Assembly (NCBI GenBank): GCA_041178425.1
Contig: JBEGVH010000002.1
Span: forward strand, 1-27,352
Source of the DNA: Pseudomonadota bacterium
Lineage (GTDB): Bacteria; Bdellovibrionota; Bdellovibrionia; Bdellovibrionales; Bdellovibrionaceae
Reading direction: 5' to 3'
DNA length: 27,352 nucleotides
This document shows positions 1-3,839 of the stretch, piece after piece (within the stretch, counting starts at the first letter, position 1; every line of letters starts with the position of its first letter). The position numbers were made by a program, and so were the translations under genes. The notes beneath the pieces are model-generated. The model had not been told where the DNA came from, ran no database searches, and was given only the letters and a program-made list of their open reading frames with translations.

Positions 1-74
1 CCTTCACCAAAGATCCATAGCTCTGCAAGTATTCTTATGATAGAAGGACAAGGTTATTCATTTTTTATCCATTT

Positions 75-419
75 GGGGGCGTAACGGCTTCGACGTGGGT
101 GCTGAAACATAAGGAGCATACCGGGGCGCATGAGGACCTCGTTAAAAATGTGCATTTTGTAATTGGCAACGATTACGCACTTGCAGCTTAATTGACTGCA
201 CGATCTACCTTGAGGTGGTTGCGCTCTTGGATAGATTGTCATTTAGTGACCTCGGCGTGTTGGGTTTTCTCCAGCAGACTCGCTTAAATTTACTGGGGGA
301 GTGTTTATGCTGATTTTGTTAGTGGAAGCTTCATAAACAAACTAAAACACTGACTAAGTATGTAGCGCCTTATCGTGGATCGCTTGCGGACGGGGGTTCA
401 ATTCCCCCCGCCTCCACCA
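75..419 (+). ncRNA. ssrA: tmRNA (transfer-messenger RNA)
   Basis: 5' GGGGGCG (75-81) pairs with CGCCTCC (409-415), including the G3:U alanine identity pair. The 5' end continues ..GGCTTCGAC; the T-arm is GGGGGTTCAATTCCCCC; the encoded 3' end is ACCA (416-419). Internal tag ORF GGC AAC GAT TAC GCA CTT GCA GCT TAA = GNDYALAA* (165-191). Confidence 0.98.
411..419 (+). repeat. attL core (CCTCCACCA, tmRNA 3' end)
   Basis: The identical 9-mer recurs at 3431-3439 in direct orientation. Confidence 0.8.
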
Positions 420-424
420 CTCTT

Positions 425-455
425 ATCGGGGGTCTTTTGGCCCCCGGTCTTTTTC
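425..455 (+). terminator. Intrinsic terminator of ssrA
   Basis: Hairpin ATCGGGGGTC-TTTT-GGCCCCCGGT (includes G:U pairs) followed by CTTTTT, a few nt after the CCA end. Confidence 0.85.
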
Positions 456-477
456 AAGCACTTAAATCAGATTTTTA
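452..477 (+). promoter_or_regulatory. Tandem IHF-like sites at the left islet end
   Basis: TTTCAAgcacTTA (452-464, one mismatch) and AATCAGatttTTA (465-477) versus the consensus WATCARNNNNTTR. Confidence 0.5.
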
Positions 478-536
478 ATAATTCCCAATGATTTTAATAA
501 TTTGTGTTACAAAAATATCCGCCATCCCAAAGCTAC

Positions 537-596
537 AAAACAACGAAGCATTTTAATATGAGGCCCAAACGAAGACCGCTGGGCTTCGTTGGTTTT
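537..596. repeat. Putative integrase arm-type repeats, left end
   Basis: CAACGAAGC (541-549), ATATGAGGCCCA (556-567), AAACGAAGACC (567-577) and an inverted copy (577-592, reverse complement CCAACGAAGCCCAGCG). Confidence 0.6.
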
Positions 597-658
597 AATT
601 TCTCATAATTTACTAGATATGTAGTATTTTTTCTGGTGATCCGCTACTTTTTAAGAGT

Positions 659-979
659 ATGAGCCTAAGAACTTCAAAGGTTCTTCCCAGTAAGGAAGGC
701 CGACTTTTAAGAAAACTAAGAAAAGACAAAAAGCTCTCGATGCGAAGCCTTGCCCAAGCAGTGAGTGTGACTGACAGCTACATCGCACAGATGGAAACAG
801 GGCGAGCCAATGCCCCCAAAGGTGAAACCCTTTATCGAATGCTGATGGCCCTTGGAACCAATGAAAAGGCTTTTAAAGAAAGGCTCCGCAATTTTAAAGA
901 GGATCGCACCGATGCATACTTATCTCTATTGATATCAAATCGATCCGATATTCTAAAAAGCCATTTTTCGGCCTCATGA
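659..979 (+). CDS. XRE-family helix-turn-helix regulator (C-terminus possibly truncated)
   Basis: LRKLRKDKKLSMRSLAQAVSVTDSYIAQMETG is a canonical HTH_XRE pattern. Confidence 0.85.
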   Translation: MSLRTSKVLPSKEGRLLRKLRKDKKLSMRSLAQAVSVTDSYIAQMETGRANAPKGETLYRMLMALGTNEKAFKERLRNFKEDRTDAYLSLLISNRSDILKSHFSAS

Positions 980-1050
980 AGCCTAGGAGCATCAGTCAGT
1001 TCATATCTCTCAAGAATGAGGCTTGGTGTGGCTTGGGTTTTCATTATGGA

Positions 1051-1893
1051 CTACCAGCGACCTTCAATATCTTTTAACTCTTTGGTAAGCACGGTAAAGG
1101 CTTCTTCGAATGACCGAGCAGAAGATATTGAAGCCACTGCACTTGACCACCCTTTTTGAAGCCGACTTGTGTTGAGCTTTTTAACTTCATCAAAGAAACT
1201 ACTTGGAACTTCCGTCTCTCTGAACTCGAAACAATTTTTAATGGCTTTCTTCAATGTCTTCGGATCTGCTTTGGGAAGAAAAACTGCCAAATCGTGAACA
1301 TCTTTAGACCGTGAATTCTGGTCCCCATGAGATATGAGGGCATGAAGCTTTTCCGCACAGATAGTTTCAATGGGATAGACCGACCAACTCATAGATTCTT
1401 GCCCTATCAAGGTATTCACTTCTACCTTTTGGGGGCCAGGAGTGATTGGATCACCAATTCCAAGGTCAAAATTGATAATCTGAGCCTTCTTGATATTTTT
1501 AAAGACTTCACCAATGCCCGCACGATATACATGTCGAATACCGCCATATTCACCTTGAGTCGTAAGGTCGACTTGGGTTTCAAAGCGAAACCAAACTCCA
1601 TCATCAAGATCATGCTCGGCTTGTTTCCTGACCTGTTCGAGGGTCTGCTCGATATTTGATTTTATGAGTAGTGCATCTAAGTCCACTGTGTAGCGAGGAG
1701 ACTCATAAACCTTCAGGCCCACAAAACCTCCTTTAAATACGAGCCGGTCAGAGAGTTTTTTATCAGCAATAAGTCTTGCGACAAGTCTTTCAATCAAAAA
1801 GACGGTTTCAACATCTCTGTATTTGGCCTCAAGCTTTTTGGATATTGTGGTGAGTTTTTGGCGAACAGATTCGCCCTTAGCTTTAGTGGTCAT
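1051..1893 (-). CDS. abiEii: AbiEii/AbiGii-family nucleotidyltransferase toxin (type IV TA)
   Basis: Motifs FKGG, RYTVDLD, AEKLHA and RSKDVHD. ATGA overlap with the upstream antitoxin gene. Confidence 0.92.
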   Translation of the reverse strand: MTTKAKGESVRQKLTTISKKLEAKYRDVETVFLIERLVARLIADKKLSDRLVFKGGFVGLKVYESPRYTVDLDALLIKSNIEQTLEQVRKQAEHDLDDGVWFRFETQVDLTTQGEYGGIRHVYRAGIGEVFKNIKKAQIINFDLGIGDPITPGPQKVEVNTLIGQESMSWSVYPIETICAEKLHALISHGDQNSRSKDVHDLAVFLPKADPKTLKKAIKNCFEFRETEVPSSFFDEVKKLNTSRLQKGWSSAVASISSARSFEEAFTVLTKELKDIEGRW

Positions 1894-2474
1894 CCTTCGA
1901 TAGCTCCTATGATGGCCTCGAAGTATTTGGTGAGATAAGCATCTAGACCTAGCTCTTTTGCCATCACTCCGATTTTTTTAAGTGTTGTCTGCTTTTGTTG
2001 AATGGCTATTCGAGCTGCTTTGATGGCGGTTCTTTCTCCGATTTTACTGGCAAGCTTAAAACCCTCTGCGATGGCTCTTTCGATGGATACAATTCGAAAA
2101 CCATCACCATGAATAATTCCAATATCAAGAGGAGTCTTTGTGCGAATCAGGCGATAACCCTTGCTACTTGTTCGTTGTTCTGGCGACACAAGAATCCATG
2201 TCTGCTGAGGAACTTGATTGGCAAGGTTATAATAAGAAAGAGCTGTCAGGCCGCCGACCACTGAATCTGGTCCGAACTTAGTACAGGCGATTTGAAAATC
2301 AATTTCTCTGGAAGCCTTGGCCTTTGGATGCAGGTATATACCCCTCTCCATCCTGTGGAGCTTTTCTTCTTTTACAAGCCTTGATAGTTCTTGATGACTA
2401 ATGCCAATCGCTTTCGCTTGTTCAAGGGTAAAAGGGCCAAGTTTTTTGAGCTTTGCTTCTTGAGCTGGTGTCAT
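1890..2474 (-). CDS. abiEi: AbiEi-family antitoxin / transcriptional regulator (type IV TA)
   Basis: N-terminal wHTH (FTLEQAKAIGISHQELSRLVKEEKLHRMERGIY), then GGLTALSYYNL and SIERAIAE. The start is placed at ATG 2474 because the longer ORF start (2501) lies inside the promoter/operator. Confidence 0.9.
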   Translation of the reverse strand: MTPAQEAKLKKLGPFTLEQAKAIGISHQELSRLVKEEKLHRMERGIYLHPKAKASREIDFQIACTKFGPDSVVGGLTALSYYNLANQVPQQTWILVSPEQRTSSKGYRLIRTKTPLDIGIIHGDGFRIVSIERAIAEGFKLASKIGERTAIKAARIAIQQKQTTLKKIGVMAKELGLDAYLTKYFEAIIGAIEG

Positions 2475-2495
2475 AGTTCTATTATCGGCATATTT

Positions 2496-2519
2496 TGACA
2501 TTTTTCAATAAAAATGTCA
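2496..2519. promoter_or_regulatory. Palindromic operator over the divergent abiE / HEPN promoters
   Basis: TGACATTTTT-CAAT-AAAAATGTCA, a perfect 10-bp inverted repeat. It overlaps minus-strand TTGAAA-16-GATAAT and plus-strand TTGACA-17-CATTTT. Confidence 0.75.
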
Positions 2520-2551
2520 TTTTTAGCCAAGGGTGGAAAGGGGTGATTAAA

Positions 2552-3232
2552 ATGGAGAGTCAGGTCATTTTTTTTGAAATTGATGGTGATAGACAAGTAG
2601 AGGAGGTCAAAAAACAAGTCTTAAGACTTCTCATAACGAAGTAGGACTTAGAGTCCACCACCAATACATTGGTTGAAATTATTAAACTGCTAAGACAGCC
2701 CACTCAAGTCAGCCCAGTTGTTATTCAATCTATGACTATTTGTGCAATTGTATCTTATAGCAGATGTTTTAATAGTTCCTTTAGTTATACCCTTAGTCCT
2801 GATTTCTTTGATAACACCACCTTGAGCGATAGAGCGACGGAATCAGCCGAAGAAAAAGAAATTACTGAGCGAATGTTCCATAACTTAGTAATGAACTACC
2901 GAAACAAACACATTGCCCACTCTGACGATTTTCTCAAATCCGGAACTGTCGGAGCTTGCAGACTTGGGAAAGACTATGCGATTGCACCCCTTATAGCTTC
3001 AAGGGTTCCTCAAGAGGATGTTTCCTTTTATAACTCGCTTGGGCGACTAACAAGCAAAGCCTTAGGAAATGTGGAGGCTAGATTGAAATCTGCCCAAGAG
3101 AAACTTCTGAGCCTCCTACAAAGCGGTCAGGCTAAGATTTCGAATAGAGAGTCAAAATTAGTTCCAATTCCTTTGGAAGTGGATGCTCTAGAAATGTGGG
3201 GACTAGCAGAAACTTATACTGGCGAAAAGTGA
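2552..3232 (+). pseudogene. HEPN-like (RxxxxxH) protein interrupted by an in-frame TAG at codon 31
   Basis: SD-like AAGGGGTG precedes ATG 2552. The frame reads MESQVIFF...LLITK*DLES, in frame with the 2669-3232 ORF. Motifs AIVSYSRCF and RNKHIAH (2900-2920). Confidence 0.7.
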
Positions 3233-3258
3233 CATTTTTTAAAGAAAATGTCACTTTT
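3225..3258. promoter_or_regulatory. Second copy of the operator palindrome (may double as a terminator)
   Basis: AAAAGTGACATTTT-TTAAAG-AAAATGTCACTTTT; same TGACA-N14-TGTCA geometry as 2496-2519. Confidence 0.65.
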
Positions 3259-3311
3259 ATCCATCTTACCCAGAGCAGCAGTGTGGGTAAGAAAATTAAA
3301 GTGGCCAAACT

Positions 3312-3335
3312 TCACATTTCTTAGCAAAAATGTGA
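3312..3335. promoter_or_regulatory. Third, degenerate copy of the operator palindrome
   Basis: TCACATTTCT-TAGC-AAAAATGTGA; same 24-bp geometry, with reciprocal changes in both outer arms. Confidence 0.55.
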
Positions 3336-3371
3336 TATTTCACCCACTGGCCTTTTCAGGATTTAATATTT

Positions 3372-3416
3372 ATATGAAGCCCAACGAGGCCCAGTGTGAG
3401 GAAAATCAAGGGGTTA
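3372..3416 (+). repeat. Putative arm-type repeats plus IHF site, right islet end
   Basis: ATATGAAGCCCA (11/12 match to 556-567) and CCAACGAGGCCCAGTG (14/16 match to the reverse complement of 577-592). Perfect IHF consensus AATCAAggggTTA at 3404-3416. Confidence 0.65.
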
Positions 3417-3430
3417 GAGGCTAAAAAATA

Positions 3431-3439
3431 CCTCCACCA
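3431..3439 (+). repeat. attR core (CCTCCACCA)
   Basis: Exact copy of the last 9 nt of the tmRNA, at the boundary between cargo and the doxX-like gene. Confidence 0.8.
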
Positions 3440-3458: not shown

Positions 3459-3839
3459 TTACTTCATGGCAAGGACTGGCTTGAATTTCTCCCACACCCC
3501 AAGAGCTGCCAAGCTCTGCAAAATCACGATCACAATCGACATCGCCGAATCAGCCGGAGTGTAAACAACATGAAACAAGAAAATATTCACAACAATCGGC
3601 GATAATAACAATAGCGCCAGTGGCACATAGAGCCCCGCCAAGAGGGCTATTCCAGCAATCACCTCTATCCCCTTCACCATAGGAAGCATGTAGGAGAGAC
3701 CAAAGAGACCGCCAATGGCTTTTCCGGCCTCTTCTGCCATGGGAGGCATAGGCAGAAAATGCAAAAACCCATTAAGCCCGAAAACAGCAAAGAGTAATCC
3801 TAAAAGAACTCGTGCACCTAAAGTGATTTTGTTTTTCAT
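3459..3839 (-). CDS. DoxX-family membrane protein
   Basis: ARVLLGLLFAVFGLNGF...VKGIEVIAG...PIVVNIFLFH; four hydrophobic segments. Confidence 0.9.
   Translation of the reverse strand: MKNKITLGARVLLGLLFAVFGLNGFLHFLPMPPMAEEAGKAIGGLFGLSYMLPMVKGIEVIAGIALLAGLYVPLALLLLSPIVVNIFLFHVVYTPADSAMSIVIVILQSLAALGVWEKFKPVLAMK

Follow-up and report, generated by a model that had tools for sequence, protein, structure and literature searches.

Organization of the ssrA Locus

The window analyzed in this study is a stretch of 27,352 nucleotides (nt) at the end of a contig in a Bdellovibrionaceae genome assembly (G000; 3,063,009 nt). The gene of the transfer-messenger RNA (tmRNA), ssrA, stands near the beginning of the window and is followed directly by a segment of 3 kb, positions 420 to 3439, which is referred to here as the islet. 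The islet carries an AbiE toxin-antitoxin (TA) pair and ends in an exact copy of the last nucleotides of the tmRNA, and it is probably the integrase-less remnant of a site-specific genomic island at ssrA that has retained its AbiE pair. The features of the locus are listed in Table 1.

Table 1. Features of the ssrA locus and the adjoining islet (positions are those of the window; att, attachment; HTH, helix-turn-helix; aa, amino acids)
Feature	Positions	Strand	Basis and remarks
tmRNA gene ssrA, tag GNDYALAA	75-419	+	ARAGORN; Rfam RF00023, 184.3 bits; last 9 nt form the attL core
attL core CCTCCACCA	411-419	+	tmRNA 3' end; homology to the left ends of G009:C73 and L034 begins here
Intrinsic terminator, element-borne	425-458	+	10-pair stem (425-448) and CTTTTT; conserved in G009 and L034 (after bare cores) and in G012 and G184 (after the tmRNA)
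Left-arm motif ATATGAGGCCCA, candidate arm-type binding site	556-567	+	same place in G009, G012, and G184
XRE-family HTH gene	659-979	+	Pfam HTH_31, HTH_3; residues 1-86 native, last 20 foreign
Gene X remnant, 43 codons, gene downstream of abiEii	916-1044	-	cut by the deletion junction; tblastn; forms in G078 and G126 longer
abiEii, DUF1814 nucleotidyltransferase toxin, full length, 280 aa	1051-1893	-	Pfam PF08843, E 5e-31; PADLOC AbiEii, E 5.4e-50
abiEi, antitoxin and repressor	1890-2501	-	Pfam AbiEi_4; PADLOC AbiEi, E 8.2e-29
Palindrome TGACATTTTT-N4-AAAAATGTCA, candidate AbiEi operator	2496-2529		repeat-family search
Gene of the 226-aa family, function not assigned	2552-3232	+	codon 31, a Q in homologs, is an in-frame TAG (2642-2644)
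Palindrome copies 2 and 3	3230-3263, 3312-3345		repeat-family search
Right-arm motif ATATGAAGCCCA	3372-3383	+	47 nt before the attR core
attR core CCTCCACCA, distal islet boundary	3431-3439	+	similarity to G004:C56 and X3/X4 contig matches end here
DoxX-like gene, first outside the islet	3459-3839	-	Pfam DoxX, E 3.4e-4, below the curated cut-off

Every open reading frame (ORF) of at least 40 aa between positions 420 and 3439 was listed, and the relevant ones (the HTH protein, AbiEii, AbiEi, and one protein without an assigned family) were scanned with Pfam and PADLOC. No recombinase was found in the islet by the ORF list, Pfam, or PADLOC, and tblastn with three ssrA-type integrases gave no match on the contig of the window, in agreement with an earlier reading of this DNA from its letters alone (the sequence-only reading), which had stated that no recombinase lies between the two repeat copies. 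The antitoxin gene abiEi is followed by the DUF1814 toxin gene abiEii, the two overlap in the sequence ATGA (1890-1893), and both proteins are intact; the true start of abiEi may be the ATG at 2474. Gene X is the conserved third gene directly downstream of abiEii in the islands described below and belongs to no Pfam family; its longer forms are 144 aa in G078 (L039, 398-832) and 270 aa in G126 (L040, 2585-3397).

Attachment Cores and Boundaries of the Islet

The window contains exactly two copies of the 9-mer CCTCCACCA, of which one forms the tmRNA 3' end and the other the distal limit of the islet; both are on the plus strand, and both cores are intact, as the sequence-only reading had proposed. 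The identity is exactly 9 nt long; i.e., the preceding bases are CCG in the tmRNA and ATA at the distal copy. The assembly contains 51 copies of the 9-mer on both strands, which exceeds the uniform expectation of 23 approximately twofold, and the same-strand density of approximately 1 per 120 kb gives a chance of approximately 2.5% of finding a copy within 3 kb. The 9-nt repeat by itself is suggestive, not decisive, and the boundary evidence from relatives decides.

In a DNA search of 41 genomes (G000 included), a contig from the same genus, G004:C56, matched window positions 916-3439 at 93% identity and continued directly past the core with unrelated DNA. Contigs from X3 and X4, two runs of an unrelated study, matched positions 1264-3439 and then continued unlike the window, and three independent sequence sets lose similarity at exactly 3439. 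At the left end, G009:C73 consists of non-tmRNA DNA, then the 12-mer CCGCCTCCACCA, and then a terminator, arm motif, and HTH gene of the window type at 88% identity, and L034, from a Bdellovibrionaceae metagenome-assembled genome (MAG), likewise has a left end of the window type behind a bare 9-mer that is preceded by non-tmRNA DNA. Since in G009 and L034 the left end stands behind a core without a tmRNA, all DNA from the core on, the terminator included, belongs to the element, and the ssrA site holds tandem arrays. Both the island boundary and the position of the ssrA terminator inside the islet had been claimed in the sequence-only reading, and both are borne out, the stem being found at 425-448 where that reading had given 425-455. 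Other copies of the 12-mer CCGCCTCCACCA in the assembly (one on C7 and two on C31) were considered as att sites and rejected, as they lie in coding or low-complexity sequence.

Each end of the islet also carries a candidate arm motif. The sequence ATATGARGCCCA is present in only two copies in the 3.06-Mb assembly, both of them in the islet, one 137 nt behind attL (556) and one near attR (3372). Among 182 family genomes, the left-end signature, core-N125-150-motif, was found in 4 and the right-end signature, motif-N40-70-core, in 12 genomes from 9 genera, and the reversed control pattern was found in none for either signature; the bases ahead of the core are ATA in 11 of the 12 right ends. These data bear on the alternative that the distal 9-mer is a chance match and that positions 420-3439 are ordinary chromosome. 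The 9-mer is indeed common in the assembly and often lies in Pro/Gly-rich coding sequence, but the shared end point of the three sequence sets at 3439, the pairing of the core with an upstream arm motif against an empty control, and the left ends behind bare cores elsewhere render a chance match extremely improbable.

Integrase-Bearing Relatives

The integrase that is absent from the window stands beside the att core in G012, in G184 (L033), and in L034. In G012, the island is assembled throughout on contig C75, in which the tmRNA and the same left end are followed by a 116-aa HTH gene (71% identical), a convergent gene for a 450-aa tyrosine integrase, and cargo of the restriction-modification type (ResIII, Eco57I-type, and N6_N4 methylase domains). 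After the cargo comes a divergent AbiE-like pair, of which the AbiEii-like frame is 31% identical and the AbiEi-like frame was assigned by reading of the sequence; G012 carries only this pair at the island end where others have gene X, abiEii, and abiEi. The right end of the G012 island is homologous to that of the window, includes CCTCCACCA, and is located 15.3 kb from the tmRNA. A second integrase gene (422-aa frame) begins directly behind this right core (L029, 901-1200), i.e., a tandem array is present at ssrA, and the N-terminus of its product presumably resembles those of P4-type integrases.

The Pseudobdellovibrio MAG G184 (L033) matches window positions 73-916 at 83% identity and then continues with an integrase that is 72% identical to that of G012. 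L034 encodes the C-terminal 198 aa of an integrase that is 84% identical to that of G012. The 28.8-kb island of G051 has a different tmRNA-adjacent integrase (approximately 30% identical), and gene X stands at its far end together with abiEii and abiEi, after which come the arm motif and the core. As a composite of several relatives, the intact island would begin with the tmRNA core, the element-borne terminator, the arm motif, and the XRE HTH gene, which would be followed by a tyrosine integrase of approximately 450 aa convergent with the HTH gene, variable cargo, gene X, abiEii, and abiEi; at its right end, the palindromic operators would precede another arm motif and the 9-nt core. Islands of this family probably insert into ssrA of Bdellovibrionaceae-type genomes at its last 9 nt.

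Integrase-bearing islands with these ends, which the sequence-only reading had envisaged elsewhere in the same genome, were found in the relatives G012 and G184 and not in the own assembly, in which no other locus has the arm motif or the ends of the islet. PF00589 was detected in four places in the assembly. Three of them, which are unmatched by the ssrA-type integrases, comprise open frames of 330 aa and 294 aa, both Xer-sized at a guess, and a fragment of 182 aa. No cognate integrase was found in the G000 assembly; the closest and best candidate is the fourth, a 381-aa integrase on C19 that is 25-30% identical to the ssrA-type integrases.

Internal Deletion and Other Reduced Islets

The homology of the window to the left ends of its relatives stops at 915, and homology of the G004 type starts at 916. 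The junction fuses HTH codon 86 to codon 43 of gene X, which starts at 1044 on the minus strand and is cut after 43 codons, whereas in G004 and G078 gene X continues past this point. Residues 1-86 of the HTH protein are 98.8% and 97.7% identical to those of G009 and G184, respectively, and the intact relatives of the protein have 116 aa. Because the homology switches at 915/916 and gene X is cut, the islet is taken to be the product of one deletion from the 3' end of the HTH gene into gene X. A single internal deletion in the lineage of the window would have removed the integrase and the cargo, with both att ends and the AbiE pair surviving.

In G009:C73, a 57-aa C-terminus of the integrase, 81% identical to residues 392-448 of the G012 integrase, is located between the HTH gene and abiEii and is fused in frame to approximately 80 codons of gene X. 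The contig ends inside abiEi, and its right end is therefore not seen. As the two junctions read, the deletion in the window is a different one from that in G009. A third reduced islet, from another genus, is located behind the tmRNA in G070 (G070:C297; L035, 1979-4584); it is 2.6 kb long, lacks an integrase, and is made only of two TA pairs. From the tmRNA onward, the G070 islet comprises a Gp49-like protein with its HTH partner, then gene X reduced to 28 codons, then abiEii and abiEi, and finally the arm motif followed by the core. Its left part equals the element located behind the AbiE island of G051, and a deletion has probably fused two tandem elements to give the G070 islet.

Among the genomes examined, reduced AbiE islets are thus found in three (the window, G009, and G070), each with its own deletion junction, and these different junctions favor repeated decay with retention of the TA pair over one spreading mini-element. 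The sequence-only reading had offered a decayed island kept by its AbiE module as one of two explanations, and the decay is supported by the integrase-bearing relatives, the integrase stump of G009, and the 915/916 junction. With regard to the persistence of AbiE, the loss of a toxin-antitoxin or abortive-infection pair would presumably be counter-selected while the neighboring genes erode. Without an integrase, the islet could not excise alone, and its movement would need a cognate integrase, e.g., that of a tandem-integrating relative.

Observations That Weigh against an Island Remnant, and Searches for Site Junctions

Several observations weigh against the interpretation of the islet as an island remnant. 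An empty site, i.e., a tmRNA-doxX junction, was not found in the DNA search of the 41 genomes, nor in protein searches of the five nearest genomes or by tblastn against tmRNA neighborhoods. DoxX protein matches of 28-53% identity are present in the five nearest genomes, but none is placed beside a tmRNA; the DUF389 protein encoded beyond 3439 has no match in these genomes, and a degenerate doxX-end pattern gave 0 matches in metagenome contigs. Of the claim that the DNA gives way to ordinary genes beyond 3439, the similarity break at 3439 stands, whereas the relatives examined do not have the genes from beyond 3439 beside ssrA. The assembly holds two tmRNAs, and because several organisms have the tmRNA 3' end in common, de Bruijn contigs do not connect the islet unambiguously to the tmRNA body. 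The conservation of the right end could mean that this att arm is in use, and it is the best argument for an arm still under selection and the chief objection to a mere relic. Finally, that AbiE caused the retention of the islet is a step that we infer.

The circle or tandem junction was sought as a 27-nt pattern of right end, core, and left end, which gave 0 matches in metagenome contigs, and neither a 419-to-3440 nor a 3430-to-420 joint was found in the contigs of 4 runs; contigs drop rare forms, so this is not evidence of absence. A related AbiE element, whose core is 12 nt long, provides a pair of empty and occupied sites across genera: the tmRNA flank of G003 (L013, 1380-1530) corresponds to the DNA behind the right end of the element in G015:C208 (L008, 100-262), with a mean column identity of 86% over a 165-column alignment. 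In G015, the terminator native to the G003 tmRNA is found beyond the right end of the element.

The Second tmRNA Gene

The second complete tmRNA is located at a contig end (G000:C11:494-839; L002). It is 93% identical to that of the window, with compensatory changes and its own terminator, and it stands in an upstream context that is conserved in relatives. G000 is the only one of 61 family genomes with two matches above the Rfam cut-off. The contigs C11 and C2, the latter being that of the window, are not redundant with the rest of the assembly, and no k-mers common to their ends link them. In the runs X1 and X2, the islet and its flank are present with 0-1 differences, and only C11-type alleles are found at tmRNA positions 74-207. 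One X2 contig, covering 74-416, is a hybrid, with C11-type alleles in its 5' part (74-207) and those of the window from 232. The provenance of window positions 1-231 is uncertain.

The junction of tmRNA and islet could accordingly be an assembly chimera, in which the islet would stand behind another island or the other tmRNA and the tmRNA body (1-389) would come from a different molecule. The contig begins 74 nt before the tmRNA, the C11 copy has the conserved upstream context, the X1 and X2 contigs are exclusively C11-type at 74-207, and unitigs break at 419. On the other hand, an X1 contig covering 390-2523 has 30 nt of the tmRNA 3' end before the islet with 0 differences, the X2 hybrid is C2-type from 232 onward, and the tmRNA is joined to the same left end in the independent G012 and G184 assemblies; we therefore consider a chimera very unlikely. 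Whichever tmRNA body is correct, the ends and the content of the islet are unaffected.

The two tmRNA genes, which are reciprocally mosaic in this view, might conceivably stem from an additional element that brought a complete tmRNA and recombined with ssrA internally; alternatively, strain mixing fits. The sequence-only reading had also concluded that the host gene depends on element-derived sequence. The terminator behind the tmRNA of the window is element DNA, but the dependence is weakened because the second complete tmRNA has its own terminator. A gene convergent with the C11 tmRNA (L002, 1-294) encodes the C-terminus of a protein of approximately 330 aa, AraC-like according to one source, which is also found in a Bdellovibrio bacteriovorus chromosome. 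The N-terminal 246 residues of this protein are absent from the assembly, which indicates that DNA is unassembled there. A phage source of the tmRNA copy was also sought: the matches were limited to short att-like ones in two phage records, and an upstream 24-mer was found in 0 viral contigs.

Conservation of the Right End and Possible Mobility

The 68 nt of the right end are identical to those of the window at 65 positions in G004, 66 in G070, and 65 in G078, and the abiE DNA is identical at 1360 of 1451, 1000 of 1464, and 1354 of 1451 positions, respectively. Such conservation beside the diverged abiE DNA of G070 fits an element that still moves. A precedent for movement without an own integrase is given by the streptococcal cis-mobilizable elements (CIMEs), which are derived from integrative and conjugative elements (ICEs), are flanked by att sites, lack recombination and transfer genes, and have arisen by deletion; their mobilization by accretion has been demonstrated experimentally. 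Like a CIME, the islet has att sites at both ends and no recombination or transfer genes, and it is derived from an integrative element by internal deletion, as seen from the integrase remnant of G009 and the 915/916 junction. Unlike CIMEs, its parental elements are without conjugation genes in the parts examined, and the islet is known from sequence alone.

The second explanation of the sequence-only reading was a mini-element mobilized in trans. In a wider form of this view, the islet could be non-autonomous yet functional, of a CIME or satellite kind, and a cognate integrase would move it in trans or, by tandem accretion, in cis; it would be small by adaptation and not through decay. Both cores and both arm motifs are intact, and the right-end 68 nt are 96-97% conserved across three other genera, with the adjacent abiE DNA at 68% in G070. 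Tandem ssrA arrays are seen in G009 and L034, in G012 with its second integrase gene, and in G051, where a G070-type left end follows. A comparable proposal has been made for the ssrA islands of Dehalococcoides, which are tandem and bounded by short repeats and 15 of which lack integration genes; these are proposed to be cis-mobilizable or fixed relics (PMC3146451). Against such an element, the internal junctions differ among the three reduced islets, and the G070 islet has another left part, which points to independent deletions; moreover, the HTH gene is truncated, a neighboring gene is broken, no integrase of the assembly exceeds 27-30% identity to the ssrA type, and the ends are found at no other locus. 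Taken together, we regard an adapted mobile element as unlikely, and an island remnant remains the preferred interpretation.

The AbiE Pair, Its Palindromes, and the Interrupted Gene

AbiE is described as a type IV TA and abortive infection system (PMC3985639). The AbiE of the islet shares with the known systems (PMC3985639; PMC7319586) the bicistronic abiEi-abiEii order, the overlapping stop and start codons, and the DUF1814 toxin, and it also shares the inverted repeats at the promoter (PMC7319586). A promoter-like site at the abiEi start (2508-2481) falls within the palindrome at 2496-2529, two further copies of which are present in the islet, and in G070 the half-sites change together to TCACA...TGTGA. 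This arrangement fits the autorepression by AbiEi via inverted repeats that has been described (PMC7319586), and AbiEi probably represses its own operon through the palindrome over the promoter. The islet differs from other AbiE systems in its three palindrome copies, which are split by an inserted gene, and in its Bdellovibrionaceae-type host, and it is known here only as sequence. The half-sites of the 24-nt palindrome covary between copies as well as between genomes, and the gene of the 226-aa family sits between the copies. X1 contigs with a depth of approximately 6 join 2523/2524 to 3352/3363, i.e., they represent variants without the gene of the 226-aa family.

AbiE is reported to help to stabilize the ICE ICESa2603 (PMC11062541), and by analogy the AbiE of the islet is located on an integrated element whose maintenance it could favor.

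The gene of the 226-aa family is interrupted in the window, in which the uninterrupted ORF is confined to 2669-3232; its homologs are 208-229 aa long. At the TAG, X1 and X2 contigs show no difference from the window, and X3 contigs read C at 2642. The gene is intact in G078 and apparently frameshifted in G004. The family has the invariant motif NYRNKHIAHSDDFLKSG and adjoins abiE in several elements. No family match to the 226-aa protein was found in Pfam, PADLOC, or NCBIfam, and Foldseek with a model of the protein (predicted local distance difference test score, 74.8) returned nothing from the PDB at E <= 0.001. VIA-align gave generic helical bundles, among them HEPN chains with Z-scores of 7.3-8.0, which are within the stated noise for helical proteins. 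A relation to HEPN proteins, for which an Rx4-6H motif might speak, is not confirmed by these scores.

Comparison with Known Islands and Implications

Like the islands of Dehalococcoides reported by McMurdie et al. (2011; PMC3146451), which lie directly downstream of the tmRNA gene (a single one in that case), the islet and its relatives are delimited by ssrA and a short, directly repeated copy of its 3' end and are often tandem. The Dehalococcoides islands have the serine recombinase DsiB, a 20-bp repeat, and an insertion point in the T-loop, whereas the relatives of the islet have a tyrosine integrase of approximately 450 aa and an identity of 9 nt at the extreme 3' end, and their cargo consists of defence or TA genes in place of reductive dehalogenases.

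We tentatively consider a wider scheme, which is possible though improbable, in which the ssrA hot spot of Bdellovibrionaceae-type genomes repeatedly yields TA-anchored mini-islets: the att arms and AbiE (or another TA pair) would survive, the integrase and the cargo would be deleted, and the mini-islets, still recombination competent, would be picked up and shuffled by integrase-bearing relatives via tandem accretion. If true, such shuffling would account for the 96-97% conservation of the 68-nt right arm from genus to genus beside neighbors that have diverged to 68%.

No published description of this island family was found in literature searches, which were not aimed at Bdellovibrio, and we make no claim that the family is unpublished. 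General concepts are unchanged, as integrase-less ssrA islands and TA-stabilized elements have already been described. The islet does provide a clean case, at the level of sequence, of the decay of a site-specific island: the deletions have left readable junctions, a relative retains a stump of the integrase, one gene has acquired a nonsense mutation, and the TA pair outlasts the rest. It also defines a family of ssrA islands with tyrosine integrases in relatives of predatory bacteria, and the left-end and right-end signatures are usable for mapping defence islands in Bdellovibrionaceae-type genomes.

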